DNA from: Bacteroidia bacterium
GTDB taxonomy: Bacteria; Bacteroidota; Bacteroidia; AKYH767-A; OLB10
NCBI GenBank assembly: GCA_036274495.1
Contig: DASUFP010000039.1
Span: 11,303 to 75,302, forward strand
DNA length: 64,000 nucleotides
Direction of reading: 5' to 3'
Shown piece after piece: positions 17,412-37,790 of this stretch. Position 1 is the stretch's first letter. Every line of letters begins with the position of its first letter. The translations under genes were made by a program, and so were the position numbers. The notes under the pieces are model-generated. The model ran no database searches. It was given only the letters and a program-made list of their open reading frames with translations, and was not told the DNA's origin.

Positions 17412-18278
17412 TTATTCGGAATTCAACCGTTTAATATTTTTTGATAATGAAATCTGATTCATAAAATCCATTAAAAACCCATGGAATTTTAAATAGTATA
17501 AATATGGGGCACTTTCCACTCTATTAATTATTTGTTTTTGAGTATCATATTGCATACCTCCCCTATGAGTTTTGTTTCTCATCAATTTAATCTCTTCAAA
17601 GGTCAACAGAATGTCCTTAAATCGTTCTTCAGACAATACTTCCTCGTCAAAGTATAAGTAATACACCAGAAGTCGGAATCTTTGAAGAATCTCCTTGATG
17701 TCATTTTTCGTGGCATCTTTGAAATAATTGTCATAATCCGCTCCAGTATAATATTTATTACTTGGCTTAAATTTTATTCTTAGAATTGTTGACTCCAAAG
17801 AAAACCCTTTCCTTGATTTATCCTGCTGCTGGGTAATTTTATTATACCAAGTATTGGTAATCAGTTGTAACTTTCTATCTAATTTAAATTTATCAAATAA
17901 AGTTGAGTTTTCATAAATTGCATTTATAACACACTCCAGTTGCTGATATATGGAAACACAAAATCGCTCAAAATCATCCCTTCGTTTTTGATGTTCCATT
18001 TCAACAAAATCACTAACCAATTTTCTTTGAACTTCCGTTGACAATAGGTTATAAATACCTAAACATCCATAAAATTCCTGAGCTTGCTTGAATATGACCG
18101 GCTCCACTGCCTGTTCATGCACCAACCTTATAACTGAATTAGCAAATTCCTTCCCTGCCAGAGTGTAGAACTTCTCCTTAGCAGAAATTACATCTGAATG
18201 CTCCTTACCCAGTGTCCGTTCAAGAATATCTATTTGCTCTTGAATATCCATTAAGAATCGCAGCCTGTTCAATTCCAT
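17412..18278 (-). CDS. Retron-associated hypothetical protein (candidate effector), translationally coupled to the reverse transcriptase. No recognizable domain
   Basis: The start codon overlaps the RT stop at 18278. The 288-aa protein is alpha-helical and unassigned. Confidence 0.5.
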   Translation of the reverse strand: MELNRLRFLMDIQEQIDILERTLGKEHSDVISAKEKFYTLAGKEFANSVIRLVHEQAVEPVIFKQAQEFYGCLGIYNLLSTEVQRKLVSDFVEMEHQKRRDDFERFCVSIYQQLECVINAIYENSTLFDKFKLDRKLQLITNTWYNKITQQQDKSRKGFSLESTILRIKFKPSNKYYTGADYDNYFKDATKNDIKEILQRFRLLVYYLYFDEEVLSEERFKDILLTFEEIKLMRNKTHRGGMQYDTQKQIINRVESAPYLYYLKFHGFLMDFMNQISLSKNIKRLNSE

Positions 18279-19450
18279 TACAATTTATATTTTAACATAG
18301 CATTTTCTACCCCTTCAGATTCCCATATATTCAATATTTCAAGAATTGATTTGGTTTCAACATTCGAGTTTAAATCAATTGAAACGGATTCTGGTGTTTT
18401 CATTACCAGGCTCTGGTATTTCTCAAGCATTCGCTTTACAATAACATCATCCTTGCCTCTCACCATACTGATAAAATCAATCCGGCCCTTTAAAACATTG
18501 GTCAAGGACTTTCTTGTTGAATCTATCAGATAAACCTTGGTTTTATCAATATCTGAATTTAGTCGCTTTTGTGCGAATTCAAACCCAAAGCTATCCCATA
18601 CATATAATAGTAATCTGGTATAACCCATGTAACTTTGATTAACGTTCACTTTCCTATTAACAATTAAGCCGGTTACTTCCTGGCGATTTTTCCACGATTG
18701 TAGGCGTACTTTAGTTTCATTGATATTATACTTTTCATCCTTCACTATTTTTTCAATTTTGTCGATGAAGTCATCAATGAAAATATCTTTGTTCGAAGAA
18801 AATGTTATATCATCAGCATACCTCGAATACCTACATCCATTCTCTTTACTAAGCTTAAACAATTTTCGGTCGAGCCTTTGGCAGACAATATTCGTTAATA
18901 TTGGTGATGTAGGAGCCCCTTGCGGTAGAACCCCATTTTCACAACATAGGTTTGCAATCAAAAATGCAAGCGGCTCTTTATCTCCGGAGAGATTGAATGG
19001 GTTTAACCCTAAAACCGTTTTGACACGACGGAAATCTGTTGAAGGAAAGAATTCCTTTAAATCAATATTGTAAACAAATGCTTTATCTACATGAATCTTC
19101 GCATTATGGACAATACTTTTTTGATAAACAAATCCGGTAGCACAATGGTGAGGATTAAAAATAGCAGTAAAAATAACTGAAATGGCTTTCTGTAATAATT
19201 TCAGCGAAGCTATAGGAGCAGAAATATCTCTTGTATCACCATTCTTCTTTGGAATTTGAAATGTTTTATAGCGGGAGTTCTTTTTAAAAGCAAGGAATCG
19301 TAGAGTTTTAGCCTCAAACTTAATAGGCTTTTTTACATTTGGGTAAAGCTTTCCTAAAACATGATTAATTAATCCCGTCAGTTGCTTTTCATTTAACACC
19401 TGGGGATACCGTTTCCGAATTTCGTTTAATAATTCCTTTTCAATTTTCAT
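18278..19450 (-). CDS. ret: Retron-type reverse transcriptase
   Basis: RT motifs FQIPKKNGDTRDISAP, LPQGAPTSP and YSRYADDITFSS (YADD). Retron-specific NAxxH (VHNAKIH) and VTG (RQEVTGLIVN) motifs are present. The true start is the Met of MKIEKE at 19450 (the track ORF extends upstream into the ncRNA). Confidence 0.8.
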   Translation of the reverse strand: MKIEKELLNEIRKRYPQVLNEKQLTGLINHVLGKLYPNVKKPIKFEAKTLRFLAFKKNSRYKTFQIPKKNGDTRDISAPIASLKLLQKAISVIFTAIFNPHHCATGFVYQKSIVHNAKIHVDKAFVYNIDLKEFFPSTDFRRVKTVLGLNPFNLSGDKEPLAFLIANLCCENGVLPQGAPTSPILTNIVCQRLDRKLFKLSKENGCRYSRYADDITFSSNKDIFIDDFIDKIEKIVKDEKYNINETKVRLQSWKNRQEVTGLIVNRKVNVNQSYMGYTRLLLYVWDSFGFEFAQKRLNSDIDKTKVYLIDSTRKSLTNVLKGRIDFISMVRGKDDVIVKRMLEKYQSLVMKTPESVSIDLNSNVETKSILEILNIWESEGVENAMLKYKL

Positions 19451-19453
19451 AAA

Positions 19454-19649
19454 ATGGGTGCCCGATGGATTTTCTCTTATGGATGAACACAGCCTTTCTT
19501 TCAAAAAAAAGAAAAACTTTAAGCATGTAATGAAACTGTTCTTCCAGGTTTTCAACGCCAAAGTGCGAGCGCAGAATCCACGTAGGAACATTACAAATAA
19601 CCATCAGCAATCGTGATGTAGAATCAAAATCTCTTATTCGGGCACCCAT
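19454..19649 (-). ncRNA. msr-msd: Retron msr-msd non-coding RNA (candidate) bounded by 12-bp a1/a2 inverted repeats
   Basis: The inverted repeat atgggtgcccga (19454-19465) and tcgggcacccat (19638-19649) flanks ~170 nt immediately upstream of the RT start, as in known retrons. Confidence 0.5.
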
Positions 19650-19679
19650 GATACACACAATGATAAATAAAATAATCAA

Positions 19680-20666
19680 TTAATTTAGAAAGGTTGGGGG
19701 ATTGATTCTCAAATGATTAGTAAGTTTTTGTGTGCCAGGTAAACTCTGTCCACCATCATACCACCTCTGGTCTGCAGCAGCAATCTTCTTCATCCGGGCT
19801 TCCCCAATCTTCTCAATCATTTTAACCTTCCGGTCATAGTTTGATTCCGGGTGCTTCATTTTTAGTAAAACCACCAGAAATTCTACCATCATCAATAGTC
19901 CGGTAAAAATGAAATACATGATTCCCATAGCCCAGTCTGAAAACACCAGTTCAAACGTAGCCTTAATCCTGTTTAACAACATTCCTTCTCCAAATGAAGC
20001 TCTGACAAGTTGTTCAGAAGAATCCTTTTCGGAATCTGATAGCTGTTGAAGTTTTACCATGTCGGCATTGCGATTCTGGAATTCAGCATACTGTTTATCT
20101 GCTAATAAACTTTTCAAGGCCGTCACTTTTCCACTACCATACTTTCCGGTTCCATATGTACCATCGGATTCAGCTTTAACATCCTGTACCCCTCGTTGCC
20201 AATCCTGGAAAGCAACATCCGATTTCTGTTGCGCTTCGACTATTCTGGCTGCAAAATCCGATTCCACTTTTTTCCTTTCTGCATCGACTTTTACTTCCAA
20301 AGTTTGAGCAAGGTGATGGTCGATATCTTCTTTGAATACAATCTCATCAATGATAACAGAGCCGATTGTTGCAACAAAAAATCCCAGCAGCAATCTGATA
20401 ACACTGATGGTACCACAACAATCAGCAAGTATAATGGAACGGTCAATCAGGAAGACAACAAATCCTGCAATTGAGCCGGCAATAATTCCATTGAATGCTG
20501 ACATATGGAAAATCTGAGTAGCCATACCGTAACCGGTGAGGAACCATAAGATGACAGGGAGAAAAAGTGCGTTAGCAAACATCATCACTTTTTTCTTACT
20601 GGTAGGTGTATCGTTGACTAACATGTTGTAGTCATCGCCGGTGATTTTAGAGGAGAATTTGAGCAT
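19680..20666 (-). CDS. Membrane protein with N- and C-terminal transmembrane helices flanking a coiled-coil region (DUF4407-like architecture)
   Basis: Hydrophobic segments FANALFLPVILWFLTGYG, IIAGSIAGFVVFLI and GIMYFIFTGLLMMVEFLVVLL. The central region is Lys/Glu/Gln-rich and coiled-coil-like. Confidence 0.55.
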   Translation of the reverse strand: MLKFSSKITGDDYNMLVNDTPTSKKKVMMFANALFLPVILWFLTGYGMATQIFHMSAFNGIIAGSIAGFVVFLIDRSIILADCCGTISVIRLLLGFFVATIGSVIIDEIVFKEDIDHHLAQTLEVKVDAERKKVESDFAARIVEAQQKSDVAFQDWQRGVQDVKAESDGTYGTGKYGSGKVTALKSLLADKQYAEFQNRNADMVKLQQLSDSEKDSSEQLVRASFGEGMLLNRIKATFELVFSDWAMGIMYFIFTGLLMMVEFLVVLLKMKHPESNYDRKVKMIEKIGEARMKKIAAADQRWYDGGQSLPGTQKLTNHLRINPPTFLN

Positions 20667-20725
20667 GGTTAATGAGGTTAAAAGGTTAATAATTTTGTTG
20701 GTTGAATCATGTTTTAACAGGGATG

Positions 20726-21343
20726 TCAGTTAAACATCCCTGTTGTTTGAGCGAACAGTTTCGCCTCCTGGTACTCCCTGCATCCACGCAGGTAGCCTTC
20801 CCGGTATTGATGAATGGCTTTCATGACCAGTCCTTCATCTTCCGCCGAATAAGCCTTCTCAGCCTCCAACTTACTGATGTTGGATTCAATCTCTGAAATA
20901 CGGAGGTCAAGTTGTTCGCTCAGCCTTTCGGATAAGCCACGGGTCTCAATCTCTTGGTTGCGCAGTTGGAAAATCTCCTGCTTGCGAACATCAATTGCCC
21001 GGTCGATAATCTGACGAAAACTTGCCCGGATGATTGAAAGTTTCTGTTGCAGAAACTCCGTTGTATGCATGGCATAACCATCATTAAACCCGGTAGAAGA
21101 AAAATCAGCCTGCATGAACTCCTGCAGTGGACTCAATTGCTCTTGTTCCGGTTGTTCAACCGGCGGAGGTGTATTATCCACGAACAACCCTTTCAACAGG
21201 TCATTTGCGAATTCAGTTGAAGAATTGGATTCAACTGGTTGAGTTTCCAGTTGAGAATTGCTGGGCTCAGTTTTCGCTCCGAAGCCGAAGAGCTTTCTCA
21301 AGAAGTTCATAAGTGAATGGGTTAAAAGGTTAAAATTTTTCAT
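20726..21343 (-). CDS. Hypothetical coiled-coil protein
   Basis: 205-aa ORF that overlaps the upstream HNH gene by 14 bp. Heptad-like charged C-terminal half. Confidence 0.45.
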   Translation of the reverse strand: MKNFNLLTHSLMNFLRKLFGFGAKTEPSNSQLETQPVESNSSTEFANDLLKGLFVDNTPPPVEQPEQEQLSPLQEFMQADFSSTGFNDGYAMHTTEFLQQKLSIIRASFRQIIDRAIDVRKQEIFQLRNQEIETRGLSERLSEQLDLRISEIESNISKLEAEKAYSAEDEGLVMKAIHQYREGYLRGCREYQEAKLFAQTTGMFN

Positions 21344-21692
21344 TTGAAGGTGAGTTAATAGGGAAGGATGGTATTGTGAATAATTGATGCCCCCTTTCGT
21401 GGCATTCCCGGCACAGGGTTACCAGATACTTGTTCGCATATTGCCAGGGTAATCGTTTCTGGCCTGTTTTGGCGCAGAAATGGTACTGCCGGTGGTGGAC
21501 ATCCAAATACTTCGTAGAACCGCAATTCAGGCATTTATGTCCATCCCTGTTCAGGATTACTTTCCGCTTCTCCCTCCATTGAGTAAATTGAAGCAGTCTG
21601 GCGTATTCCGGTTGATTATTGATTATTTCTGACATCAGATTAGAATTTGTTGTGATGCCAGTCCATTGACAAAAATGTGTCCAGATTGGCAC
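21330..21692 (-). CDS. HNH endonuclease (small standalone His-Me finger nuclease). The likely start is MSEIINN near 21635
   Basis: HKCLNCGS...LDVHHR...LVTLCRECHERGH is the Cys4 Zn-finger HNH signature. Confidence 0.7.
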   Translation of the reverse strand: MPIWTHFCQWTGITTNSNLMSEIINNQPEYARLLQFTQWREKRKVILNRDGHKCLNCGSTKYLDVHHRQYHFCAKTGQKRLPWQYANKYLVTLCRECHERGHQLFTIPSFPINSPSNEKF

Positions 21693-21699: not shown

Positions 21700-22120
21700 T
21701 ATATCAATTGATTATAATTTTATCATCTATCATATTATGATTTATAATATCATTTTATGATATTATATCAACGTCTTTCGAAGTTCAATTGAACAGAATA
21801 TGATGTCTTTTCCCATTTGAGGAGCTTGGAAAAGCGTGATGAAAAACAGTAAAATCCTGATATTCAGTTAGTAAACGAAACCGACAGTTAACCGCAGTTA
21901 AGGGTAATAAAGAAAAGCATAGTAAACTGAAACTTGAATAAACTAAAAGCAGAATGAACCTAAACAGAAAAATAAACCTATCCGGACCTTAACCTCAGTT
22001 AAGGGTATTATAGTAAACTACAGTAAAGTAAATCATAGGAAAGATTAATAAACCCAAAGAAAAAAAAAGCAGAGTATAGGAAAACCCGCACCTTAACCTG
22101 GCTTACCGGTCACACACCAA
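21700..22120. repeat. AT-rich intergenic region with palindromic ATCATATTATGAT-like elements and ~100-bp imperfect direct repeats (cagttaagggta... x2-3)
   Basis: ttaaccgcagttaagggtaa at 21890, ttaacctcagttaagggtat at 21989 and ccttaacctggcttacc at 22091. The stretch lies upstream of the minus-strand HNH operon. Confidence 0.35.
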
Positions 22121-24990: not shown

Positions 24991-26439
24991 TTATGAAAAC
25001 ATGTCGGGGTCAATATTAGCATCCTTCATCTTTTTCACCAACGTATTCACACTTCCATATCCAATTGCCAATCGTGTTTGTTCTTTGTTTCCGTTTTTCA
25101 GTTTGAGCACACGTTTAATATGTTCAGCTTCTACATGCTCAATCCTAAGTGGATTTTCTATCGGACTTACAATCATGCGTTCAGGCAAATCCTTTACTTG
25201 GACCAGACCATCACAAAAAATATGCAGTTTAGCAATCAAATTTTCAAGCTCACGCAGATTGCCTGGAAAATGATAATTCAACATAACTTCCATAGATTGT
25301 TTGTCGAACTCCAACAGTTTGGTTCGCTTTAGTTTTTTCTTGTAAAGTTTATTAAAAAACTCAATCATGTTTTTTAGCTCTGCTTTCCCCCTTTCCAGCA
25401 AGGCCGGTATATGTAATTCGCCAACAGCAAGCCGATAATATAAGTCCCACCGAAATTTATCCTCTTCACATCTCTTAATCAGGTTTTGATTGGTAGCACA
25501 AATTATCCTGACATCCACTTTTTCGGGTTTACCTCCAACCGGGTGTATTTCCTTCTGTTGTATGACTCGCAACAAAGCTTGTTGCATATAAGGGCTGATA
25601 TCACCAATTTCATCAAGAAAAATACTTCCTTTATCTGCTTCATGGAATAAGCCAGGCGCATCCTTGCCTGCCCCGGTAAAAGCCCCCTTTTTATAACCGA
25701 ACAGTCTTGATTCAAGAAGCTGGTCTCCTATACCGGCACAATTGAATACAATGAATGGTTTCCCTTTACGTGTTGATTGTTCGTGCACATAATTTGCCAG
25801 GTGCTCTTTACCGACTCCACTCATACCTAATATCAATGTTGTGATGTCATCGGTATGTGCAATTTTTAATGCCTGGTCATAAACTGGCTGAATCGAATCG
25901 GTTATTATATAATCAGAATCCTGTTTTGGTTTACCCGATTTCGATAACTCATTATCGAGTATAGTTACTGCCGTCGGGATTTGACTTTGTTCAAAGTTAA
26001 TTTCAACGAGCTCCGGCCTTTCCTTGCTTTTCGTGAATTTAGCTTCTCTTGATTGGAGTAATCTTGTCTTATAATTACCCCCCAGATGTATGAAATACCA
26101 GGCAATCTGCATTTGTGGGGTTCCCGGACTAACGAAAATATCAATCTCATCATCCTTTATGGATAGCATCCATCGCTCGACTTTCTGCCTGATTTCATTT
26201 ACATTAATTACATCATCCACACCCAAGTAAACAATTTCGAATTCCCTGCCTTTAAACTTTTTGGACAATAAGGTAAAAAGCTTTAGCGCACGCAAATCGT
26301 CCTCTTTTGCGCTCGACAAAATGTAATGTTTATCATGCTCGAAAAAGTTGCTATGGAACGAACATGTAGGTCCACTTTCAATTGCCTCTCCATCTTTGAA
26401 ATCATGCTGGAACGCTAACCAACTTACAAGAATTTTCAT
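24991..26439 (-). CDS. RtcR-like sigma-54-dependent transcriptional activator (N-terminal CARF-like domain + AAA+ sigma-54 interaction domain with GAFTGA + C-terminal helix-turn-helix)
   Basis: Walker A GMSGVGKE. FGYKKGAFTGAGKD contains the GAFTGA loop. The C-terminal Fis-type helix-turn-helix is present. N-terminal DIFVSPGTPQMQIAWYFIHLG closely parallels the E. coli RtcR CARF motif IHITTGTHVAQICWFLL. Confidence 0.8.
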   Translation of the reverse strand: MKILVSWLAFQHDFKDGEAIESGPTCSFHSNFFEHDKHYILSSAKEDDLRALKLFTLLSKKFKGREFEIVYLGVDDVINVNEIRQKVERWMLSIKDDEIDIFVSPGTPQMQIAWYFIHLGGNYKTRLLQSREAKFTKSKERPELVEINFEQSQIPTAVTILDNELSKSGKPKQDSDYIITDSIQPVYDQALKIAHTDDITTLILGMSGVGKEHLANYVHEQSTRKGKPFIVFNCAGIGDQLLESRLFGYKKGAFTGAGKDAPGLFHEADKGSIFLDEIGDISPYMQQALLRVIQQKEIHPVGGKPEKVDVRIICATNQNLIKRCEEDKFRWDLYYRLAVGELHIPALLERGKAELKNMIEFFNKLYKKKLKRTKLLEFDKQSMEVMLNYHFPGNLRELENLIAKLHIFCDGLVQVKDLPERMIVSPIENPLRIEHVEAEHIKRVLKLKNGNKEQTRLAIGYGSVNTLVKKMKDANIDPDMFS

Positions 26440-26498
26440 TATGTATCAGTATTTGACATGTAAATGTAATTATTGATAGACCCAAAAATAATATATAT

Positions 26499-27806
26499 TT
26501 GTATTTCAGCAAATTAATATTTGGAACATCAATTGAAAACGTATTAGGGTCAAACTATAAGCCAAAATCTATGAAAAACACCCTGATTTGCCCAAACTGT
26601 CGCCATGAAATTGATATAGAAAAAGCCTTGTTTGACCAGATTGCTTCACGGCAAAATGCTGAAATTCAACGTAAAAGAAAGGAATTGGAAGCATTAATAT
26701 CCGAACAGGAGAGTGTACTCCAGGAAAGGGAAGCCGAACTGAAAAACAAGATAGCTACTCAGGAGGAAGTTCTGAATTCCAAATTGAAGGAAAGGGAAGC
26801 CCAGATGAAAGAAAAACTCCGGTTGGAAATTTCCGATTGTTTAAGGATGGAAGTGGAAGAAAATAGGTTGAAAATGGAAGAGCAAAAATCCGAACTTAAC
26901 GCTCTTAAAAAAAGGGAGTTGGGTTTGCTCAGGGAGAAAGAAAAACTGGAGCAGGAACGCCAGGATATGGAATTAACTTTACAGCGCAAACTCACGGAAG
27001 AAAAAACCGCCCTGGAGGAAAGAGTTCGGAAACAAGAGCAAGAGTCCAACTTTCTCAGAAATCAGGAAAAAGATGAGCTTATTAATAATCTGAATCTCCA
27101 AATGAGCGATATGAAGCGCAAGTTGGAGCAGGGCTCCATGCAAAGCCAAGGTGAAATCCTCGAGCTGGAGTTGGAACGGATGCTGACAGCGCAATTCCCC
27201 TTTGATGATATCAGGGAGGTACCAAAAGGGGTAAACGGAGCGGATTTAGTTCAGGAAGTTAAGAATATTCGTCAGCAAAAGTGTGGTAGCATTTTATACG
27301 AAACCAAACGTACGAAGAACTTCAGTCCGACCTGGATTGATAAACTGAAATCCGACCAGCGAACTGTAGCTGCTGAAATAGCAGTACTCGTAACAGAAGT
27401 TCTACCAAAAGGAATGACACATTTTGGTTTGATGAATGGAGTTTGGATTTGTACATTTCAGCAAGTAAATTCACTGGTATTGGCACTCAGAGAAGGGTTA
27501 TTACAGATACAAGATGTCCGAGCTTCCGGTGAAAACAAATCCGGCAAGATGGCGCAGCTTTACGAATACCTAACCAACCAAGAATTTGCAGGGCAAATTC
27601 AGGCAATAGTCGACGGATTTGTGGGACAAAAAGATTTGCTTGAACGGGAAAAACGGTCGATGCAAGCTGTTTGGAAGCAACGAGAAAAACAAATTGAGAT
27701 GTGTACACAATCCGCCATAAGCTTATATAGCACCATTAAAGCTATTGCAGGGCACAATTCGATTTCAATTTCTTCATTGGAATTGCCAATTAACCAATTG
27801 ACCTAA
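26499..27806 (+). CDS. DUF2130-like protein (N-terminal zinc ribbon, long coiled coil, conserved C-terminal domain). The likely start is MKNTLICPNC at 26571
   Basis: CPNCRHEID zinc ribbon, a ~180-aa Glu/Lys/Leu-rich coiled coil and a conserved C-terminal region. It is the first gene of the plus-strand defense operon. Confidence 0.5.
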   Translation: MYFSKLIFGTSIENVLGSNYKPKSMKNTLICPNCRHEIDIEKALFDQIASRQNAEIQRKRKELEALISEQESVLQEREAELKNKIATQEEVLNSKLKEREAQMKEKLRLEISDCLRMEVEENRLKMEEQKSELNALKKRELGLLREKEKLEQERQDMELTLQRKLTEEKTALEERVRKQEQESNFLRNQEKDELINNLNLQMSDMKRKLEQGSMQSQGEILELELERMLTAQFPFDDIREVPKGVNGADLVQEVKNIRQQKCGSILYETKRTKNFSPTWIDKLKSDQRTVAAEIAVLVTEVLPKGMTHFGLMNGVWICTFQQVNSLVLALREGLLQIQDVRASGENKSGKMAQLYEYLTNQEFAGQIQAIVDGFVGQKDLLEREKRSMQAVWKQREKQIEMCTQSAISLYSTIKAIAGHNSISISSLELPINQLT

Positions 27807-27844: not shown

Positions 27845-30391
27845 ATGAGTGAAGACAATAATTCATCACAAAATTTTTTTAATACAATACGTTCGATACG
27901 TTCATTAGCACATATTTATGCAACAAATAGTGTTTTACTTTTTTTCTTTTACCTGAAGAGACTTGGATTGATTAATGACAAGTTGCTGTCGAGCAAATCT
28001 CAACTCAAATTTAATCTGCATAAAGCCATTCAAAATTCTTACAATTCAGATAGGATACTATATTCGGAACTTCAAATACTCTACAAGCTAAATGAAGAAA
28101 ATATTAATAACATACCCGAAGCTATATTAAATCAGATTCTGGGTAACATTGTTAACCTTGAGGATAGAGCAGATAATTTGATTATTAAAAATAATGTTGA
28201 ACAACTTATAAGTTCAATGGTCTCTACAAATGATAGAGAAATCGGATTATCATTTATGCCGTCGGAAGTGACAAAATTAATGTGCCAATTATCAGAAGCA
28301 AAGTCTGGCGATTATGTATATAATCCCTATGCCGGATTAGGCTCCTTGGGAGCGTATTTACCTCAAGACATTCATTTTATTGGGCAAGAATTAAATAAGA
28401 GCACATGGGCATTAGGATTTTTGAGAACTACCTTAGGCATGAATAACCCCAATTACAAATTTGTACAAGGTGATTCAATTGATGATTTTGGCTGCTTCAA
28501 ATACATTAATGAAAATCCCTATAAGTTTAAAAATTGGAATCAAAATAAACTTTACAGCCATATAATTTCCTGTCCTCCATTTGGTCTGAAAACTGCCTAT
28601 AGTGGAAAAAATGGAGAAATAATATCCGTATCATCCGAATTTCATTTGATTGAATCGGGAATTAAACTTTTAAGCAATAACGGAAAGCTCATTGCATGTA
28701 TTTCAAATGGATTTTTATTCAGACAAGGCAAGGAGGCTGAATTAAGAAAATATTTGGTAGAAAACGATTTGATTGAAACAGTCATATCACTTCCAAGCAA
28801 TCTGTTGTATAATACAGCTATCCCTACTTCCATCTTGTTAATTAATCAAAACAAGGCATTGAAAGGAAAAATCAAATTTATAGAAGGAAGACAATTAATT
28901 AGCACAGAAGATTTGCGACTTAATGTGTTGGATTTTGAAAGGATATTGAATTTATCCACATCAATTAATGATGGAGAATATCTCAGAATCGCTCCTATGG
29001 AACTGGTGGCACTTAATGAATACAATTTAATGCCCTCCAGGTATTTTCAAAAGTTTATTCCAGGAGAGCCCTTGAGCAATTTCTGTGAAATATTAAGATT
29101 TGGAAGAGATGAACAGTCATTAACTGGAAAATTTATTAGAATCCGAGACTTAAAGGGGGACCCGGCAGATTTTAGAATTAACACAAATAGCATTGCTGAA
29201 ATAAAATTACCATCGTATGCTGTTAAGATTAATAAATCCTGTCTTTTGGTTAGCACAAATTGGAAATCATTAAAACCAACCTATTTTAACTACGAAGGGA
29301 CCCCTCTTTTTTCTGGCAATGACATTATTGCAATTACATTTGATGAAAATAAAGTCAATCTTGGTTTTCTAATTGAAGAGCTTTCGTCTAAGTCTATCTT
29401 AGAACAAATAGATTTGTTGACAACAGGAACAACAGTTCCCCGATTATCAAAACAAGATTTACTCAATTTAAAGTTAGTACTCCCTCCTCTTGCAGAGCAG
29501 AATGCGAAATTTATGGGATTTATAGCAGGAGTAGCGGAATTAAAAAAAAGGGAGCTTGAATCATTTGCTAAAATAAATGGACTTGAAAATGAATTGTATG
29601 AACAAAATACATTTCTTCGTCACAAATTAGCTGGTCCTGTTAGTAATGCCCTTGGTGCATTTGAAAATATTTTTTCCATTCTCAATAGTGAAGTTGTAAG
29701 TAAACTTCCGGATGTCATGAATTTTAAACTTACTTCGAATCATCTTTATAGTTTGAATGATTATATAAACATACTGAAGAAAGGACTTGATGATATTTCT
29801 GACTCCGTAAAGAAGAAAATTACATTTGACATCAATTTTGCTAATAAAGTTAAATCTCCAATTGACATTCTCGCTTTTATAAACGCATATGTCAAGATTA
29901 AAAAGGAAAATCCAACATTAAATTACTCTATAGATGTAAAGTATGATAGTCCCGGATTTTTAGATGAAAACACTGAAACCGAATCAATAATTTATGTGAA
30001 CGGGAATGAAGAATTACTTACTGATTTATTTGATAATCTCTTAGAAAACGCTCAGGTGCATGCTTTTACCCAAGGAGCAAACAATAGAATCGAATTTTAT
30101 ATAATACCATATATAGTAAATGAAGATAAGCCCGAAATATGTATTTTGGTCTCTAACAATGGTAAGCCGTTTCCAGATGACGATGATTTAGTGTTTTCCA
30201 AAAATGGAAGTAAGGCGGGTCCAAATTCTGGTGATGGATTTGGGGGGTACTATGTTAGTGAGATTATAAAATTTCATGATGGCAAATGGGATATTATAGA
30301 TGAAACAGGACCGGAGGGTTTACCAAATACTGATTTGGCAACAACAATTGATATTACATTACCAGTAATTTCGAGTGATGCAAAAATATAA
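27845..30391 (+). CDS. Fusion protein: HsdM-like N6-adenine DNA methyltransferase domain + HsdS-like target recognition domain + histidine kinase (HisKA H-box + HATPase_c)
   Basis: Methyltransferase motif I VYNPYAGLGSLGAYL. Motif IV ISCPPFGL is a Cys variant of NPPF. The TRD ends with the type I S-subunit signature VLPPLAEQNAKF. The H-box is FLRHKLAGPVSNALGAFENIF. The ATPase N, G1 and G2 boxes are LLENAQVHA, VSNNGKPF and GDGFGGYYVSEII. Confidence 0.75.
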   Translation: MSEDNNSSQNFFNTIRSIRSLAHIYATNSVLLFFFYLKRLGLINDKLLSSKSQLKFNLHKAIQNSYNSDRILYSELQILYKLNEENINNIPEAILNQILGNIVNLEDRADNLIIKNNVEQLISSMVSTNDREIGLSFMPSEVTKLMCQLSEAKSGDYVYNPYAGLGSLGAYLPQDIHFIGQELNKSTWALGFLRTTLGMNNPNYKFVQGDSIDDFGCFKYINENPYKFKNWNQNKLYSHIISCPPFGLKTAYSGKNGEIISVSSEFHLIESGIKLLSNNGKLIACISNGFLFRQGKEAELRKYLVENDLIETVISLPSNLLYNTAIPTSILLINQNKALKGKIKFIEGRQLISTEDLRLNVLDFERILNLSTSINDGEYLRIAPMELVALNEYNLMPSRYFQKFIPGEPLSNFCEILRFGRDEQSLTGKFIRIRDLKGDPADFRINTNSIAEIKLPSYAVKINKSCLLVSTNWKSLKPTYFNYEGTPLFSGNDIIAITFDENKVNLGFLIEELSSKSILEQIDLLTTGTTVPRLSKQDLLNLKLVLPPLAEQNAKFMGFIAGVAELKKRELESFAKINGLENELYEQNTFLRHKLAGPVSNALGAFENIFSILNSEVVSKLPDVMNFKLTSNHLYSLNDYINILKKGLDDISDSVKKKITFDINFANKVKSPIDILAFINAYVKIKKENPTLNYSIDVKYDSPGFLDENTETESIIYVNGNEELLTDLFDNLLENAQVHAFTQGANNRIEFYIIPYIVNEDKPEICILVSNNGKPFPDDDDLVFSKNGSKAGPNSGDGFGGYYVSEIIKFHDGKWDIIDETGPEGLPNTDLATTIDITLPVISSDAKI

Positions 30392-31544
30392 CGTGATTTG
30401 GTTTGACGACCAATTTGACACATTAAATATCATACGAGAAGAAGCCCATTTAGCTGGCATTTCACTTGTTGGATTTTCTGACGCTCAGTCTGGTTTGCAT
30501 GAATTAGAGAAAAATTCACATTTGTATGATGCAGCCTTAGTCGATGGGAATTTCTTCATTAAACCTGGATTAAATTCTGACCAAGTTAGTGATGAAGCTC
30601 TTGACATTGTAGCTAAAGCTTTTCTTAGGCTTGAAACAAAAAAAATTATCCCATGGTTTATTCTTTCTGGTCAAGCCAATTTTACAAAAGGTGGAAACAA
30701 GTATGCTGATGTATATAAAAATGGAGAAGTTTTTGACAAAATAAATGAAAGTTCTCGTCAGGAATTATGGAATAAAATAAAAGAGGCAGCAAACCATCAA
30801 CCTGACACTCAACTTCGGCACAAATATCGTATGATTTTTGAGTTGTGCGATGAGAATTATCTGGGTATACATATGTCTGAAACATTGATGGGATTGATTC
30901 ATTTGCTTAAAGATGATTCAGAAGTGGAGCAAGGACTCCAATCTTGGAATACAATCCGGAAAGTAATTGAAAGATGTTTCATTGTACTTAACCGAATTGG
31001 CTTAATACCAGATGAGATAAATCGAACTTCTGGAAGTATAAATGGGTCAGGCTTGTTTTTGGCGGGCAAGCATTCCGATTTTCGATTGAAAAAAGAAATA
31101 GCTCCACCTGTAATTAATTTTATGATTCATAATTTGTTAGAACTTACACAAGACGGCTCTCATTCAAAAGAAGAATTAAAGCTTAAAGTAGATTTATTTG
31201 TAAAAAATCAACCAACCGGTTTTCTATTTAAAAGTAGCATTTATCAACTTTTGGAGATTCTAATTTGGCTTAAGAGCATTATTGACACTTATCCATCAAT
31301 AGATGACAACAAAAACCTTATTGAACTTCGAAGCGTCTCAAATACTGCCATTTATGAAGGCGAAATTGAACAAGACGAGCGTAAAAATTTTCACTGTGGA
31401 GAATATTTGTTAAACTTTCGTTTAGTAAATGAAAGTTACAAGGTTGGTGATATTATCAGAATATTGGATTTCACCTCTAACAACAATTCAAGAACAAATA
31501 TTTTTTATTCAAAATTTGCAACTAAATTTATAAAGATAACTTAA
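30375..31544 (+). CDS. Receiver (REC) domain protein with ~250-aa C-terminal domain of unknown function (candidate output/effector). It overlaps the kinase-fusion gene by 17 bp
   Basis: N-terminus VIWFDDQ...YDAALVDGNF...IPWFILSGQ...TKGGNK fits the REC Asp-Asp/Asp/Ser-Thr/Lys pattern. The C-terminal part is unassigned. Confidence 0.5.
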   Translation: MMQKYNVIWFDDQFDTLNIIREEAHLAGISLVGFSDAQSGLHELEKNSHLYDAALVDGNFFIKPGLNSDQVSDEALDIVAKAFLRLETKKIIPWFILSGQANFTKGGNKYADVYKNGEVFDKINESSRQELWNKIKEAANHQPDTQLRHKYRMIFELCDENYLGIHMSETLMGLIHLLKDDSEVEQGLQSWNTIRKVIERCFIVLNRIGLIPDEINRTSGSINGSGLFLAGKHSDFRLKKEIAPPVINFMIHNLLELTQDGSHSKEELKLKVDLFVKNQPTGFLFKSSIYQLLEILIWLKSIIDTYPSIDDNKNLIELRSVSNTAIYEGEIEQDERKNFHCGEYLLNFRLVNESYKVGDIIRILDFTSNNNSRTNIFYSKFATKFIKIT

Positions 31545-31551: not shown

Positions 31552-33027
31552 ATGACCCAAAAACAACTCGAAGACTACCTGTGGGGCGCAGCCAACATCT
31601 TGCGTGGAATGATTGATGCTGCCGATTTCAAGCAGTATATTTTTCCTTTGCTGTTTTTTAAACGAATCAGTGATTTGTGGGATGAGGAATTTGAAATTGC
31701 CAAAGTGGAGAGCGGTGGCGACTTAAAATACGCTGAGTTTGCCGAAAATCATCGGTTCCAGATTCCGAAAGGATGTCATTGGAACGATATCCGAAAAAAG
31801 ACGGTGGATGTAGGAGCCGCTTTGCAAAAGGCATTAACCGGTATTGAGAAGGCTAATTTTGAAATGCTACATGATGTATTTGGTGATGCCCAATGGACGA
31901 ACAAACGCCGGATGAGTGATGAAAAAATGCTCGACCTAATAGAACATTTCAGTAAAATGAATTTGAGTGTGAGTAATGTGCCCCACGACTTGATGGGGGA
32001 AGGGTATGAATACCTCATCAAAAAATTTGCGGATGACAGCGGGCACACGGCTGCGGAGTTTTATACCAATCGCACTGTGGTAAAACTCATGACCCAGATT
32101 ACAGACCCCAAAAGCAAAGAGAGTATATACGACCCGACATGTGGAAGTGGCGGAATTTTACTAAGTGCTGCCCTACATTTGAAAGAGCAAGGTAAAGAAT
32201 ACCGAACATTGAAGCTGTACGGACAGGAGTTGAACCTGATAACCTCTGCTATTGCCCGTATTAATATGTTTATGCATAACGTGGATGAGTTTCTTATTGT
32301 CCAAGGCGATACCCTTGACAGCCCACAAATTCTTGAAAACGATGAGTTGAAGCAATTTGATGTTATTATGGCCAATCCTCCTTATAGTGTAAAGAAATGG
32401 AGCCAGAAAAAGTGGATGAATGACCCTTTTGGACGTAATATCTGGGGTACGCCTCCCCAGGGTTGTGCCGATTATGCCTTCCAGCAGCACATTATGAAAA
32501 GCCTGAACCCTGTTACAGGACGTAGTGTGGTATTGTGGCCTCACGGAGTATTATTCCGGGATGCGGAAAATGAAATCCGTAAAAAAATGATTGAGGAAGA
32601 TTATGTGGATGCGGTTATCGGGCTTGGGAAAAATCTGTTTTACAACAGTAGTATGGAAAGTTGTTTGCTGGTGTGTAGGATGAAAAAGCCAAAGGAGCGA
32701 AAAGGAAAGATTATTTTCATTGATGCCAAAGATGAACTTAGAGTTGAGCGGACTAATGCCTGGTTGGAGCCACAGCACATTAAGAAGATAAGCGATGCAT
32801 ATTGGAAGTTTAAAGATATTGACGGTTTTGCCAAAGTAATCTCTAATAAGGAAGTGTTGGTTAACAATGGTAATCTCAGCTTACCACTCTACGTGAAGCA
32901 ATCTACTAATGCATCTGAACACAATACTCAAGAGTTAATTTCCGAAATTAAAGATAGACAGAAACAAATCAATAAGTCTATTGATAATTTGGTTGCTCAT
33001 CTTAAACAAATTGGAATAGAATCATGA
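31552..33027 (+). CDS. hsdM: Type I restriction-modification system methyltransferase subunit HsdM
   Basis: HsdM N-terminal domain LEDYLWGAANILRG. Motif I YDPTCGSGGIL. NPPY motif MANPPYSV. Confidence 0.9.
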   Translation: MTQKQLEDYLWGAANILRGMIDAADFKQYIFPLLFFKRISDLWDEEFEIAKVESGGDLKYAEFAENHRFQIPKGCHWNDIRKKTVDVGAALQKALTGIEKANFEMLHDVFGDAQWTNKRRMSDEKMLDLIEHFSKMNLSVSNVPHDLMGEGYEYLIKKFADDSGHTAAEFYTNRTVVKLMTQITDPKSKESIYDPTCGSGGILLSAALHLKEQGKEYRTLKLYGQELNLITSAIARINMFMHNVDEFLIVQGDTLDSPQILENDELKQFDVIMANPPYSVKKWSQKKWMNDPFGRNIWGTPPQGCADYAFQQHIMKSLNPVTGRSVVLWPHGVLFRDAENEIRKKMIEEDYVDAVIGLGKNLFYNSSMESCLLVCRMKKPKERKGKIIFIDAKDELRVERTNAWLEPQHIKKISDAYWKFKDIDGFAKVISNKEVLVNNGNLSLPLYVKQSTNASEHNTQELISEIKDRQKQINKSIDNLVAHLKQIGIES

Positions 33028-34184
33028 AGTTGAATAAGCATAAGTGGGGTTCGGTTAAGCTTTCCGAGGTTTGCGAAAAAACTCAAAATGTTGATATACG
33101 CAAGCAATCAGGAATATTCAGTTATATTGATATTGGGTCTATTAATTCTGATGCAAAAAGAGTATCTGAAGTCCAAATGCTGAATTGGTCAGAAGCTTCT
33201 TCAAGAGCAAGACAAATAATTCATAAAGGAGATACTCTTTTTTCAACTGTACGAGTCAATCTCGAAAGAATTGCGTTTATTGATAAGGAAATTCCTAATG
33301 CGATTGCCTCTACTGGATTTACTGTTATAAGAGCCAATAAAAAGGCTTTGCCAGAATTCTTATTTTACTCAACAAGTTCTCCGGAATTTATAGAAAGACT
33401 TTGCAAATTGCAAAAGGGGACTGCTTATCCTGCGGTTTCTGATAGAATAGTCTTTAATGAAGTTATTCCCCTCCCCTCACTCGCCGAACAAAAGCAAATA
33501 GCCGAATTATTTCAAAGCATTGAAGCTGCCATGGAACAGGTGGAGGGGCAGGAGAGGAATTTGAGGACACTTCAAAAATCCTTAGTCAATGGCTTAGTTG
33601 GCAAAAAACCAGTCTTTGGAGATTTATTGAACGCAAAAAACTGCACCCCTACAACCTTTGGTGAAATAGCCGAGTGCGACAAAAAGTACCCTGAGCATGA
33701 ATTAGAGGCGGAACGGTTTGTTGGTTTGGAGAATATTGAGGCTGATAACTTTCAACTGCTTGGTTATGGATTAGTTGCCAATGGAACCACTTTTTCCAAA
33801 CGGTTTTGCACTGGAGATGTATTGTTTGGGAAGCGAAGAGCATACTTAAAAAAAGTTGCAGTCGCAGATTTTAATGGTATATGTTCAGGTGACATCCTGG
33901 TAATAAGAGCTAAGGCTAAGAAAATGCTGCAGGGGCTTTTGCCATATTATATTTCAGCAGATGCATTCATTCAACATGCCGTCAGTACTTCTGCAGGCTC
34001 TTTATCTCCACGGACCAAATGGAAAGATTTAGCTGACTTCGAGATTTCAATACCTGATATAAAAACACAGGAGAAAATACTGGCAATCCTTAGTCAGTTT
34101 GATAATACTATTAATCAGCTCAAACAGCAGAAGGTGACATTGAAAAATTTGAAGCAAAAGTTACTGAATGAGATTTTGGGGTAA
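33024..34184 (+). CDS. hsdS: Type I restriction-modification system specificity subunit HsdS (two target recognition domains)
   Basis: Two TRDs separated by the conserved PLPSLAEQKQIAELF region, with C-terminal LKQKLLNEIL. The gene overlaps the end of hsdM. Confidence 0.85.
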   Translation: MKLNKHKWGSVKLSEVCEKTQNVDIRKQSGIFSYIDIGSINSDAKRVSEVQMLNWSEASSRARQIIHKGDTLFSTVRVNLERIAFIDKEIPNAIASTGFTVIRANKKALPEFLFYSTSSPEFIERLCKLQKGTAYPAVSDRIVFNEVIPLPSLAEQKQIAELFQSIEAAMEQVEGQERNLRTLQKSLVNGLVGKKPVFGDLLNAKNCTPTTFGEIAECDKKYPEHELEAERFVGLENIEADNFQLLGYGLVANGTTFSKRFCTGDVLFGKRRAYLKKVAVADFNGICSGDILVIRAKAKKMLQGLLPYYISADAFIQHAVSTSAGSLSPRTKWKDLADFEISIPDIKTQEKILAILSQFDNTINQLKQQKVTLKNLKQKLLNEILG

Positions 34185-34327
34185 TAGTATAGTATTGGGA
34201 TTCAATATTATAAGTTTAATTTTTTATGTCTCAGTAAAAAGGGGGCCAAGTTATATTAAAAAATTTGTCTTAGATTTGTGTTGTTCGTTTTCTGAGTGAC
34301 CTAACCCTGTGGTTAATCTAAAGTCAA

Positions 34328-36559
34328 ATGAAAATGAACAAAAAACCTTCACCTGAACCTGAAACAAAGGTTGCAAGAATCATTGGGTTATTCAAGACTT
34401 CTCCAACAGAAGCTTTTCAATCATTACTCGAAGAAGGAATTTTCTTTAACCACAAGCAAAGTGTCAATTTTTGGCAGAGTTATTCTGCAATTTACTCTGA
34501 TGAACTTGTTGTATCATTTCCTGAATCAACAGAATTATTCAACAAGTTGGTTTGGCTCAAACTGTTCCATGATTTAAATCAATTCTATAATTCGGAAAAG
34601 GATAAAAACCTAAAAGAGTTATATGCTCTCAATCCGAATCAAAAAGATTTTGTTCAAGCCCTATTTCTTTGTCTTGAACTTGGAACCTATAGTTATCCAT
34701 ACTCGACCTTTCCGATTTATTCTGGAGATTCCCTCACGGCAATTAAAACTATCCTTAAGGAAGTAAAACATCGCTTAAATCCCCAGAAACCATCTCCATA
34801 CTCCCCTGCACTTGCTCAAACGTGCAACACTCTGTTAAAAATCCAGATAGATTTGGATTCGCTCGAAGAATTCGTTGATGCATATGTATGGGCAGGACTT
34901 GAAATGGAGAAACTGAAAGATTTGCAAGGATTTTCATTATCCATTTCAGAACGAAATAAAAAAGAGCTCAATCCACTTGTATTAAATCAAATAAAGACGA
35001 TAATAAAGCGAACATATAAACAAACAGAATCACATGCTGGGATTTCGACAGAAAAACACTTTATAAAGAACGACCCTAAATGGAAGTCCAATGAAGGTAT
35101 ATTAGGGGCAATTGCCTTACATGGGGCAACTATCCATTCAAAAACACCTGGAATAACAGCGATAAATGCTGAGCCTGGAGAGTTTCCGGAATTAGACGTA
35201 ACCAATCCGCATTCTATTAATTCAATTGCGAAGAAAGCCATTGAAACATTTTTGACTCACAATTTTCATTTACAGCTAAGACAAGCAATCTCCAGTGTTT
35301 ATCAACCTAATGATGAGATAGATATCAAGACAATTCAGATTGAAGTCAAACCAAACATGTTTTTTTCACTTTTCGAGTTGATAGCTGCAATGTCAAGTCT
35401 GATTTCATGGTCGGATGCATATAGGTATTTCGCAGATTTTCCAGACAGTGGAAGCATCAAGTCTATCAAGAGGAAACTTTACCATCAGCTATCAAGCCAG
35501 GATGCAGATTTATCTGAGTTTGAAAAACACGAAATAATTAACTGGAAAATCGTGAGCGAATTTCAATTAATCAATTCAGCTCCAGAAAATATTTTCTATG
35601 CCTTATTGAGCTCAGATAGTATTATCAATAAATTTCGGGATGTTGAAGAATTAAGGGACAAGTCTCCGATTGAACTTGAATCTATTTTACATTTATTTTC
35701 AGATTTGAATATTAAAACGCCTTTTAATCCAATTTATACTGTTAATAGTGATTACTATTTTGCTAATCACAGTTGTCTTTTCAATATGAATCGCATGTTA
35801 TATGACAATTACATTTCAGATGAATTGTTCAATTCAAAAAAGCCCACGGGAAAGCAAAGAAAACATGTAGGGGATTTACAGAAAAATCGGGAATTACAAT
35901 TTGGCAATTCGATTTCAGATGTTTTTAAAGAAATAACTCCATATAGTAAAGCAAATATAAAATTTGATGGAACCAATCCTAAATATAATTTCGGTGATTT
36001 AAAGGGTGAACTGGATACGGCTGTTTATTTCGAGTCAGAAAACATATTGTTTGTAATTGAGGTGAAGTTAAGTAATGTTGCTCCAAGGAGCGAAAAAAGA
36101 AAATACACTTGGGTATACAATAATATTGCAAATAAACATAAAGTAAATTCGGGAGTAAATCAAATCAAGAAGGATTTAAAGTTATTAAGTATTGGTGTCG
36201 GGTTACAATTAATTTCAGAGGAGATTAACGCTCCGAGTACAATTACAAATCCCCGTGTTTATCCAATAATCATTACTGATAATTTCTTTGCTGACCATGA
36301 AGAATTCATATACAATGAGAGAGGAGATAAGGTTCGTTGCATCAGTTATTTTGAACTTAAACATCTCATTTTAAACAAACCGATTCACGAACAGCAAAAA
36401 TTGCCTGAATTAAAAGGAGAATCAATCGCATCACAATTAATAAAGGCAATTGATAACAATTTATTTTGGAAATTCATTACTGATGAGGCTGCAAACTATT
36501 CATACACCAAGTCCCTCACTGCCATCAATGATGAATTCAAAATAACTATGAAGATATAG
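34328..36559 (+). CDS. Large hypothetical protein (743 aa) with C-terminal PD-(D/E)xK-like nuclease motif, inserted between hsdS and hsdR
   Basis: GELDTAVYFESENILFVIEVKLS fits the Asp...Glu-x-Lys restriction-endonuclease-fold motif. No other recognizable domain. Confidence 0.4.
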   Translation: MKMNKKPSPEPETKVARIIGLFKTSPTEAFQSLLEEGIFFNHKQSVNFWQSYSAIYSDELVVSFPESTELFNKLVWLKLFHDLNQFYNSEKDKNLKELYALNPNQKDFVQALFLCLELGTYSYPYSTFPIYSGDSLTAIKTILKEVKHRLNPQKPSPYSPALAQTCNTLLKIQIDLDSLEEFVDAYVWAGLEMEKLKDLQGFSLSISERNKKELNPLVLNQIKTIIKRTYKQTESHAGISTEKHFIKNDPKWKSNEGILGAIALHGATIHSKTPGITAINAEPGEFPELDVTNPHSINSIAKKAIETFLTHNFHLQLRQAISSVYQPNDEIDIKTIQIEVKPNMFFSLFELIAAMSSLISWSDAYRYFADFPDSGSIKSIKRKLYHQLSSQDADLSEFEKHEIINWKIVSEFQLINSAPENIFYALLSSDSIINKFRDVEELRDKSPIELESILHLFSDLNIKTPFNPIYTVNSDYYFANHSCLFNMNRMLYDNYISDELFNSKKPTGKQRKHVGDLQKNRELQFGNSISDVFKEITPYSKANIKFDGTNPKYNFGDLKGELDTAVYFESENILFVIEVKLSNVAPRSEKRKYTWVYNNIANKHKVNSGVNQIKKDLKLLSIGVGLQLISEEINAPSTITNPRVYPIIITDNFFADHEEFIYNERGDKVRCISYFELKHLILNKPIHEQQKLPELKGESIASQLIKAIDNNLFWKFITDEAANYSYTKSLTAINDEFKITMKI

Positions 36560-36606
36560 TGCATAGGTGAGTTATCGGAGAATCCGATAATCTAAATCTC
36601 ACCACT

Positions 36607-37476: not shown

Positions 37477-37485
37477 TTTCACGGG

Positions 37486-37790
37486 AAACATGTCGATTAT
37501 TTTAACTATTTTCGACACGTTATTGGCTTATGTCGATTTTATCAACATATAGGACAAGTTTTAAATTCAACCATCATTTAAATATATTTATTTGATATTC
37601 AACTATATATCAAACATTTTAAGTGTTTGTAAACCTCTATCTTGAAATCCTAAAACGTACTTTATTGAAATTCAAATAAATATAACTTTCAAAAACAAAA
37701 TATCCTTAGAATAGTTGGGAAGACTCTTGCATGTGTCGATTTTATTGTAGATTTTCGACATATCGAAAGCTCATGTCGAGCCTGTATACA
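37486..37790. promoter_or_regulatory. Two copies of a 28-bp AT-spaced dyad TGTCGA-N16-TCGACA plus extra half-sites in the pVip-Fic intergenic region (candidate operator)
   Basis: tgtcgattattttaactattttcgaca at 37490-37517 and tgtcgattttattgtagattttcgaca at 37734-37761. Additional tgtcga half-sites at 37530 and 37774. Confidence 0.3.

Follow-up and report, generated by a model that had tools for sequence, protein, structure and literature searches.

An RtcR-like sigma-54 activator predicted to control two defence-type gene clusters in a Bacteroidia bacterium

The regulator gene and its sensor domain

In a 64,000-nucleotide stretch of contig DASUFP010000039.1 from a Bacteroidia bacterium (hereafter the window), the gene for a sigma-54 activator with a CARF sensor domain lies back to back with a plus-strand array of genes led by a DUF2130 gene, an arrangement that an earlier note on this DNA had already described. 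That note had drawn the regulator from 24991 to 26571; the gene in fact stops at 26439, and 26440-26570 is an intergenic control region. The features of this part of the window are:

24991..26439, minus strand: regulator gene, 482 amino acids (aa), CARF - AAA+ (sigma-54 activator) - helix-turn-helix (HTH), from the open reading frame (ORF), Pfam and PADLOC
25990..26439, minus strand: CARF sensor domain, about residues 1-150, with the SPGTPQMQIAWYF motif at 26092-26130
25414..25896, minus strand: AAA+ sigma-54 interaction domain, residues 182-342, from Pfam and motif positions
25027..25125, minus strand: C-terminal Fis-type HTH, residues 439-471, from the coverage of the full-length PADLOC model
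26445..26479, no strand: candidate enhancer (upstream activating sequence), palindrome ATCAGTATTTGAC at 26445-26457 and half-site TTGATAG at 26473-26479
26522-26536, plus strand: predicted sigma-54 promoter TGGAACATCAATTGA (TGGAAC-ATCAA-TTGA), -24 GG at 26523-26524 and -12 G at 26535
26571..27806, plus strand: DUF2130 protein with Zn-ribbon, coiled coil and PD-(D/E)XK-superfamily domain (Pfam DUF2130 E 6e-63)

Pfam placed Sigma54_activat on residues 182-342 of the regulator (E 1.7e-58), followed by AAA_lid_14. The AAA+ domain carries the equipment of a bacterial enhancer-binding protein (bEBP): a Walker A motif (GMSGVGKE, residues 205-212, window 25804-25827), the GAFTGA loop that the earlier note had recognized (residues 252-257, window 25669-25686), a Walker B motif (FLDEIG, residues 274-279, window 25603-25620) and arginine fingers, together with the further AAA+ motifs FRWDLYYRL (329-337) and NLRELEN (394-400). 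To judge from the sequence, the catalytic motifs are all intact. The PADLOC model RtcR_PspF2--CARF_AAA_HTH (PDLC01995) matched residues 1-476 over profile positions 1-480 of 481 (421 bits, E 1.7e-126), better than the sister models RtcR_PspF1 (188 bits) and RtcR (144 bits), and PspF structures matched the AAA+/HTH core with 161 bits. A Pfam HTH_8 scan gave no match on the C-terminus of the window regulator itself; HTH_8 (PF02954) is present in its homologues. An identical protein at NCBI, from a Bacteroidia metagenome-assembled genome, is labelled 'sigma 54-interacting transcriptional regulator'. Relatives number in the thousands, and the best 120 are full-length, 50-80% identical and, wherever the source names a taxon, from Bacteroidota.

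With the N-terminal domain alone as query, a large protein index yielded no relatives, whereas the full-length query succeeded. An alignment of the N-terminal domains of 33 diverse family members was used for the comparisons that follow. Individually scanned at a permissive E<=0.1 rather than by gathering score, 32 of the 33 domains matched Pfam RtcR (PF06956; best E 2.8e-8), the next families being Csm6 CARF (14), HFX_2341_N (11), DUF1462 (8, unrelated), Card1 CARF (2) and Csa3_N (2). Profile alignment with hhalign matched the family to residues 49-165 of Escherichia coli RtcR (probability 93.8%, E 1.8e-7) and paired SPGTPQMQIAWYF of the regulator with TTGTHVAQICWFL of RtcR. The CARF-core pattern claimed earlier for the N-terminus is thus present, as IDIFVSPGTPQMQIAWYF at residues 99-116, and aligns with RtcR. 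Against PDB sequences the N-terminal profile was suggestive only (Can2, E 0.029; ring nuclease Sso2081, E 0.3). A search of 1.84 billion representatives with the CARF-only profile returned 366 clusters at E<=1e-3, and nearly all of their full-length members were 470-510 aa long; therefore, by this census, the regulators form a family of moderate size with a single architecture.

The residues that are invariant or at least 90% conserved among the 33 sequences are S6, W7, D13 and F14 after strand 1 and S104-P-G-T107 after strand 4, with M110, Q111 and W114 also listed as family-invariant. The places after strands 1 and 4 are described in a passage of PMC4012209 as the ligand-binding place of CARF domains, and conserved motifs line the pocket here at both. 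A basic residue after strand 4 was not found, the segment SPGTPQMQ holding no K or R. According to the same passage, the RtcR family likewise lacks the basic residue typical at this point of cyclic-oligoadenylate binders; its absence argues against a cyclic-oligoadenylate ligand and favours no particular ligand. At the level of the family, the hhalign and Pfam RtcR matches clearly identify the N-terminal domain as a divergent CARF domain of the RtcR type.

Two predicted enhancer-promoter cassettes

Related loci (cited by L numbers) were collected through identical-protein look-ups (15 loci) and by taking one genome per species (80 loci); 224 species genomes encode a relative. Counts of cis-elements refer to the 85 loci with enough upstream sequence, and promoters were scored as TGG-N8-TTGN or TGG-N10-GC when they lay 55-135 nt from the ATG of the regulator and pointed away from it. 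Sixty-four of the 85 loci carried the sigma-54 motif in a fixed place and orientation, against 1.9 on average and at most 6 in shuffled sequence. Positions left free by the pattern were filled as in the sigma-54 consensus: of the 64 sites, 46 have C at position 4, 61 have A at position 5 and 62 have T at position 12. The family sites thereby reproduce tTGGCAC-N5-TTGC, many of them perfectly, for example TGGCACAAGAATTGC in L047.

In the window, TGGAAC-N5-TTGA lies where the earlier note had located it, its last base 35 nt ahead of 26571, the ATG that is the true start of DUF2130 and is conserved in relatives. The same register is seen in TGGAATACGGATTGT (L001), TGGAATACAGATTGG (L016) and TGGCATTGTAATTGT (L003), and the closest relatives carry TGGAAT-N5-TTGT or TTGG in a register identical to that of the window promoter. 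The site had been called weak, a description that does not hold for a promoter conserved in position and strand across the family. The observation that its -12 GC is imperfect is correct insofar as the window copy, which has the GG and the -12 G of the GG-N10-GC type, has A in place of C; yet only 33 of the 64 sites have C after the -12 G (17 have A and 12 have T), so an imperfect GC is common in the family. The significance of the window promoter derives from this comparison with related loci alone, by which TGGAAC-N5-TTGA is the local copy of a genuine, position-conserved promoter.

The candidate enhancer begins 6 nt from the regulator ATG. Of the 85 loci, 72 have the pattern ATCA-N5-TGAT, with up to one mismatch, no more than 75 nt from the regulator ATG (shuffle mean 5.4, maximum 12); a 6-nt spacer gave no matches, and the 5-nt spacer is the one that fits. 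From the first palindrome to the -24 TGG the distance was 76-77 nt in 49 of 56 loci and is 77 nt in the window (26445 to 26522), and a second palindrome or half-site often lies 20-21 nt beyond the first in related loci. As read from these spacings, palindrome and promoter have the classic geometry of an enhancer-binding protein, and the C-terminal HTH is predicted to bind the upstream sites. An Rfam scan of the control regions found no RNA family.

A second cassette, beyond what the earlier note had covered, lies 4.8 kb from the first on the opposite strand (21669-21761):

21729..21761, no strand: second candidate enhancer, two exact ATCA-N5-TGAT palindromes (21729-21741 and 21749-21761), 20 nt apart
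21669..21683, minus strand: second predicted sigma-54 promoter, TGGACACATTTTTGT, 78 nt from the distal palindrome

The promoter aligned with TGGATAATAGTTTGC in L001 and TGGTATATTGATTGA in L016, as did the palindromes and the HNH reading frame behind the promoter; an equivalent unit is visible in L003, and the HNH frame is conserved in all three loci. When all collected locus sequence was searched for the composite of palindrome, 75-78 nt and promoter, one unit was found in 50 loci and two units in 15, compared with 5 in 1.35 Mb of shuffled sequence. Two further composite matches in the window, at 18338-18414 (plus strand) and 13444-13369 (minus strand), lie inside ORFs and were regarded as chance.

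Genes behind the promoters and around them

Behind the two promoters, besides the DUF2130 gene, the following were annotated (those of the second cluster from Pfam and PADLOC scans):

27845..30391, plus strand: 848-aa fusion of N6-adenine methyltransferase (MTase), target-recognition domain and histidine-kinase-like module (Pfam N6_Mtase E 2e-34, Methylase_S, HATPase_c)
30378..31544, plus strand: receiver-domain (REC) protein, 388 aa, partner of the kinase-like fusion (AlphaFold2 and Foldseek)
31552..44570, plus strand: co-directional downstream array of hsdM, hsdS, a 743-aa protein of no assigned family, viperin, SoFic, hsdR, a 267-aa protein likewise unassigned and PDC-M11A/B
17412..21635, minus strand: second cluster predicted to be regulated, five genes, as follows
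21330-21635, minus strand: HNH-type small protein, 101 aa, ATG at 21635
20726-21343, minus strand: 205-aa protein
19680-20666, minus strand: DUF4407
18278-19591, minus strand: retron-type reverse transcriptase (RT; PADLOC RT classes XI, XII and I-C, E ~1e-107)
17412-18278, minus strand: 288-aa protein

The DUF2130 domain is listed in the PD-(D/E)XK superfamily (PMC3424549). The kinase-like module of the MTase fusion consists of an H-box-like FLRHKLAGP and HATPase_c, and the fusion also occurs in L001, L003, L007, L085 and L093. The 388-aa protein had no Pfam or PADLOC match; its AlphaFold2 model (predicted local distance difference test 89) retrieved the response regulators PorX, FixJ, ArlR and KdpE as top Foldseek hits, and on this model its N-terminal domain is a response-regulator receiver. 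Five of its residues never vary (W8, D56, K121, R194, H262), and at least 90% of sequences retain D10 and D11. In at least nine loci the fusion and the REC protein look like a two-component pair inside an R-M-like (restriction-modification) module, for which (27845-31544) no PADLOC model exists. The DUF2130, fusion and REC genes recur together in the closest relatives.

The array at 31552..44570 has gaps of at most 47 nt except for 143 nt (34185-34327) and 318 nt (37477-37794). It is not conserved in the closest relatives; therefore read-through from the first promoter into it is possible but unproven. A scan of the array for sigma-70-type promoters and terminators gave nothing above shuffles, such models being ill-suited to Bacteroidota. 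The Type I R-M genes are split (33024-41861, plus strand), and between hsdM and hsdS on the one side and hsdR on the other stand the 743-aa protein (34328-36559; no family match), a viperin of the prokaryotic type (36607-37476) and a Fic protein of the SoFic type (37795-38877). A sigma-54-like TGGGAAGACTCTTGC with GG and GC intact lies at 37716-37730 (plus strand) in the 318-nt gap, 65 nt upstream of the SoFic ATG; no palindrome is near it, and the chance expectation for that gap is about 0.13.

Across the family, the first gene behind the promoter was compared in 71 loci: 15 have DUF2130 there and 30, in another clade, a 157-aa protein, and the later genes vary. The 157-aa protein had no match in Pfam, the sole library scanned. 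In L037, L068-L071, L074, L085, L089, L091 and L093, DUF2130 is always first behind the promoter while its followers change. The leader gene is thus far more conserved than the rest of the cargo, which suggests that it may belong to the regulatory module. Among 130 non-redundant proteins behind the promoters, the Pfam census gave N6_Mtase (12), Methylase_S (9), DUF2130 (8), HATPase_c (6), HsdM_N (5), DEAD (5), BrxA (3), AAA_15/21 (3), BrxB (2) and RVT_1 (2), and also Helicase_C, ResIII, DnaB_C, YhcG nuclease, SNF2 and Schlafen/AlbA_2. No RNA repair or metabolic family was among the 25 most frequent cargo families listed. Judged by these assignments, the genes behind the promoter are of R-M or defence type throughout the family. 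In the Crocinitomicaceae-type loci L030, L031, L036, L041, L044 and L045, the sigma-54 operon comprises the 157-aa protein, a vWA protein, a DnaB_C/KaiC-like ATPase and a reverse transcriptase, and may be an uncharacterized RT-based system.

Around these clusters the window contains:

24534-24947, minus strand: 137-aa gene
23801-24388, minus strand: 195-aa tyrosine-recombinase-like gene, catalytic domain only
23041-23652, minus strand: 203-aa gene
22541-23077, plus strand: extracytoplasmic function (ECF)-type sigma factor
15586-17361, plus strand: GmrSD-type HEC-05 protein, candidate defence system (E 5e-221)
42712-44570, plus strand: PDC-M11A/B of the array listed above, candidate defence system (E 2.7e-205 and 5e-52)
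46588-47922: tyrosine integrase
47944-48789: Dam-type MTase
49705-49775, minus strand: tRNA gene

The first four genes (22541-24947) form a conserved backbone after the regulator, in the same order in L001-L007. In a stretch without a convincing gene that separates the ECF sigma gene from the second enhancer, two copies of a direct repeat of about 60 nt (73% identical, 101 nt start to start, core CAGTTAAGGGTA) lie at 21872-22032; the stretch holds one 126-aa ORF without family match (22133-22513). Similar repeats, CCCTTAACT, occur in the corresponding gap of L003, and the repeat has no Rfam match. The integrase, Dam-type MTase and tRNA gene (46588-49775) are probably the boundary, on one side, of a genomic island integrated at a tRNA, and a 2079-aa ORF (8326-14565, minus strand) adjoins the island.

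Proposed mechanism, alternatives and known systems

We consider it probable that a CARF-gated bEBP switches on the two neighbouring defence clusters through sigma-54 promoters. The AAA+ motor would be kept inactive by the N-terminal RtcR-type CARF sensor while a dimer of the regulator sits on the ATCA-N5-TGAT palindromes beside its own start codon. A ligand arising in infection or nucleic-acid damage would bind the CARF domain, whereupon the regulator would oligomerize, touch the RpoN holoenzyme 76-77 nt away at TGGAAC-N5-TTGA and open the promoter with ATP. The genes turned on would be that of the nuclease-like DUF2130 protein and those of the MTase/histidine-kinase-like fusion and the REC protein paired with it, and read-through may extend to the Type I R-M, viperin and SoFic array; through the second cassette, on the other strand, the HNH, DUF4407 and retron-type RT cluster would come under the same control.

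In this scheme we infer that the regulator binds the palindromes, that transcription depends on RpoN, that the CARF domain exerts negative control and that a ligand exists. The inhibitory role of the CARF domain and ligand-driven oligomerization are proposed by analogy, because deletion of the CARF domain of RtcR leads to constitutive expression, and 5' tRNA halves with a 2',3'-cyclic phosphate bind that domain and drive oligomerization (PMC7790460). Damaged RNA or cyclic nucleotides could be imagined as the inducing signal, and as CARF ligand we give equal standing to a cyclic oligonucleotide or a nucleotide derived from phage.

Several observations weigh against this scheme. The HMM check for CARF came out two ways: the family passes it, through Pfam RtcR, hhalign and PADLOC, but the window N-terminal domain alone reaches no curated CARF threshold, its best single-sequence matches being the sub-threshold Cas_Csm6_CARF (E 0.023) and cas_csm6 (E 0.006). 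The window promoter deviates twice from consensus (A for C at -22 and at -11), and a scan of the window with the bare pattern, allowing up to two mismatches, gave 54 matches where 50.9 were expected, so the site by itself does not rise above chance and the island-wide scan for TGGCAC-N5-TTGC that the earlier note had proposed is uninformative. In 21 of the 85 loci no promoter was found with the patterns used. A TATATTTG box at 26494 (plus strand) could be a housekeeping-type promoter and provide basal, sigma-54-independent expression of the DUF2130 operon. Across the family, however, this point speaks for the scheme: TAnnTTTG, which we take to be the Bacteroidota housekeeping -7 box consensus, is rare ahead of the sigma-54 site on the strand of the cargo, at 2 of 64 loci (the window being one) against about 5 expected; it was enriched on the regulator strand (16 of 64). 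No rpoN was seen among the scanned ORFs of the window; RpoN is widespread in Bacteroidota. Finally, E. coli RtcR requires RtcA and RtcB bound to its CARF domain, as part of PMC9650030 reports, and these partners are absent here; therefore the activation logic may differ from that of RtcR.

It is scarcely credible that the regulator is a true RtcR orthologue with an rtcBA target elsewhere in the genome and a coincidental promoter-like sequence beside it. NCBIfam RtcR is among the better full-length matches, with an alignment that enters the N-terminal domain (82-417 against 91-430), and the two CARF domains are homologous; identity to E. coli RtcR is about 26% over residues 84-426. Against orthology, the RtcR equivalog NF038308 scored 231.5 bits where its cutoff is 650, PADLOC RtcR reached 144 bits against 421 for RtcR_PspF2, and the promoter and enhancer are kept in position and orientation beside the regulator. 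No rtcB or rtcA adjoins the gene divergently, and tblastn with E. coli RtcA and RtcB (E<=1e-3) found no match in the window (reaching about 25 kb from the regulator in one direction and 37 kb in the opposite one) or in the 95 related loci (8-10 kb around the regulator), as the earlier note had said of the window. We rejected the RtcR assignment on score and gene context, which, with the cassette and the defence-type cargo, support the note's view of an RtcR-like activator of a defence operon rather than of rtcBA. Very unlikely, if less so, is a regulator that serves recombination, excision or maintenance of its carrier element, the defence genes being passengers with promoters of their own. 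The closest relatives do keep the regulator in the fixed company of the 137-aa gene, the 195-aa recombinase-like gene, the ECF sigma factor and DUF4407, and an island end lies near the integrase and tRNA gene; yet both cassettes face nuclease, MTase and RT genes and not the recombinase or ECF sigma gene, the wider family conserves the regulator and divergent promoter and not the backbone, and the census is one of R-M, BREX and RT genes.

A variant that retains sigma-54 dependence has the CARF domain controlled by a protein partner, either a leader product (DUF2130 or the 157-aa protein) or a phage protein. The dependence of RtcR on bound RtcA and RtcB (PMC9650030, in the part cited) speaks for it, as do the leader gene, much more conserved than other cargo, and the finding that no cyclase or other signal-producing enzyme is conserved beside the regulator. 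We think this variant unlikely: the most conserved residues lie at the nucleotide-binding place of CARF domains, the CARF domain of RtcR binds RNA ends directly (PMC7790460), and nothing points to a contact of the regulator with DUF2130. The CARF-gated, ligand-responsive bEBP remains our preferred reading; the earlier interpretation, its inducing signal apart, is supported as far as sequence allows, and none of the findings that it had named as contrary came up. More tentatively, and with considerable doubt, we suggest that one inducible master switch, the regulator, could govern a whole mobile island of several defence systems. The cassette would be a docking platform for interchangeable immune modules (R-M, BREX, RT systems and the MTase/kinase-REC pair, possibly also viperin and Fic by read-through), and a leader gene, the DUF2130 nuclease or the HNH of the second promoter, would act in a feedback loop making or removing the CARF ligand, in the way that RtcA and RtcB serve RtcR. 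If true, Bacteroidota would possess an interferon-like immune response at the level of transcription, induced by infection.

Knowledge of immune-gene regulation in bacteria is poor. A sigma-54 promoter is practically silent unless its activator is present, and because of this silence a CARF-gated bEBP would make whole defence clusters strictly inducible, with less autoimmunity and cost. The parts open to experiment are two candidate binding sites, two promoters of fixed geometry and a compact sensor domain, and the relatives include cultivated hosts (Spirosoma, Fibrella, Mucilaginibacter and Emticicia). The identity of the ligand would tell whether damaged RNA ends are a general infection alarm outside the Rtc system.

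RtcR-like sigma-54 activators of R-M or defence operons have been predicted before (2014, 2024) and are not new in principle; our literature search found no experimental study of this family. A passage of Makarova et al. 2014 (PMC4012209) ties an RtcR-like family to R-M instead of Rtc genes and predicts sigma-54 activators that sense infection-derived ligands. The window protein is a member of the corresponding PADLOC family (RtcR_PspF2, PDLC01995, 'associated with R-M systems'), and the R-M and defence association, in place of Rtc genes, was found both in the locus contexts and in the cargo census. New here are the cis-elements of fixed geometry over dozens of species, the two-promoter regulon, the conserved leader gene and the unusual MTase/kinase-like plus REC module; neither the cis-elements nor a second promoter nor a DUF2130 leader comes up in the passages of PMC4012209 and PMC11090510 on these regulators.

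RtcR of E. coli and Salmonella shares with the window regulator the order CARF - NtrC-type AAA+ - HTH and the CARF motif xSxGTxxxQIxW, and E. coli rtcR-rtcBA has the same divergent layout, with the sigma-54 promoter TGGCACGACGGTTGCA between regulator and target. It differs in acting on rtcA and rtcB from one promoter, where the window regulator is predicted to have defence-type targets behind two, and in requiring the partners RtcA and RtcB, both missing from the window. PspF has a similar AAA+ and HTH core and is a sigma-54 activator of a stress-response operon; whereas the window regulator has its CARF sensor in cis, PspF is without a sensor domain, and PspA exerts the control in trans. The studied regulators of bacterial defence genes that we found are of the WYL type, and BrxR and CapW, in the relevant parts of PMC9122601 and PMC11662680, do the same job of a ligand-sensing transcription factor at the edge of defence systems or islands. 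In fold and logic they are unrelated to the window regulator, being winged HTH-WYL repressors at sigma-70-type promoters instead of ATP-driven sigma-54 activators.

Also close are the defence 'superoperons' of Type I R-M, Druantia and CoCoNuT headed by RtcR homologues, for which a passage of Bell et al. 2024 (eLife; PMC11090510) proposes cyclic-phosphate RNA as the signal. As that passage presents them, an RtcR-like CARF activator heads a long co-directional multi-defence array that includes Type I R-M, and a coiled-coil nuclease stands beside the R-M genes (ShdA there, DUF2130 in the window). No CoCoNuT (McrBC-type) gene was recognized among the scanned array genes, 44951-45811 and some other ORFs being without family match. 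The superoperons described in PMC11090510 further differ in that their regulator is co-directional with the cargo and not divergent, in that Pseudomonas is the only genus named in the CoCoNuT passages, the window host belonging to Bacteroidota, and in cargo, the MTase/kinase-like plus REC pair, viperin, SoFic and retron-type RT setting the window apart.

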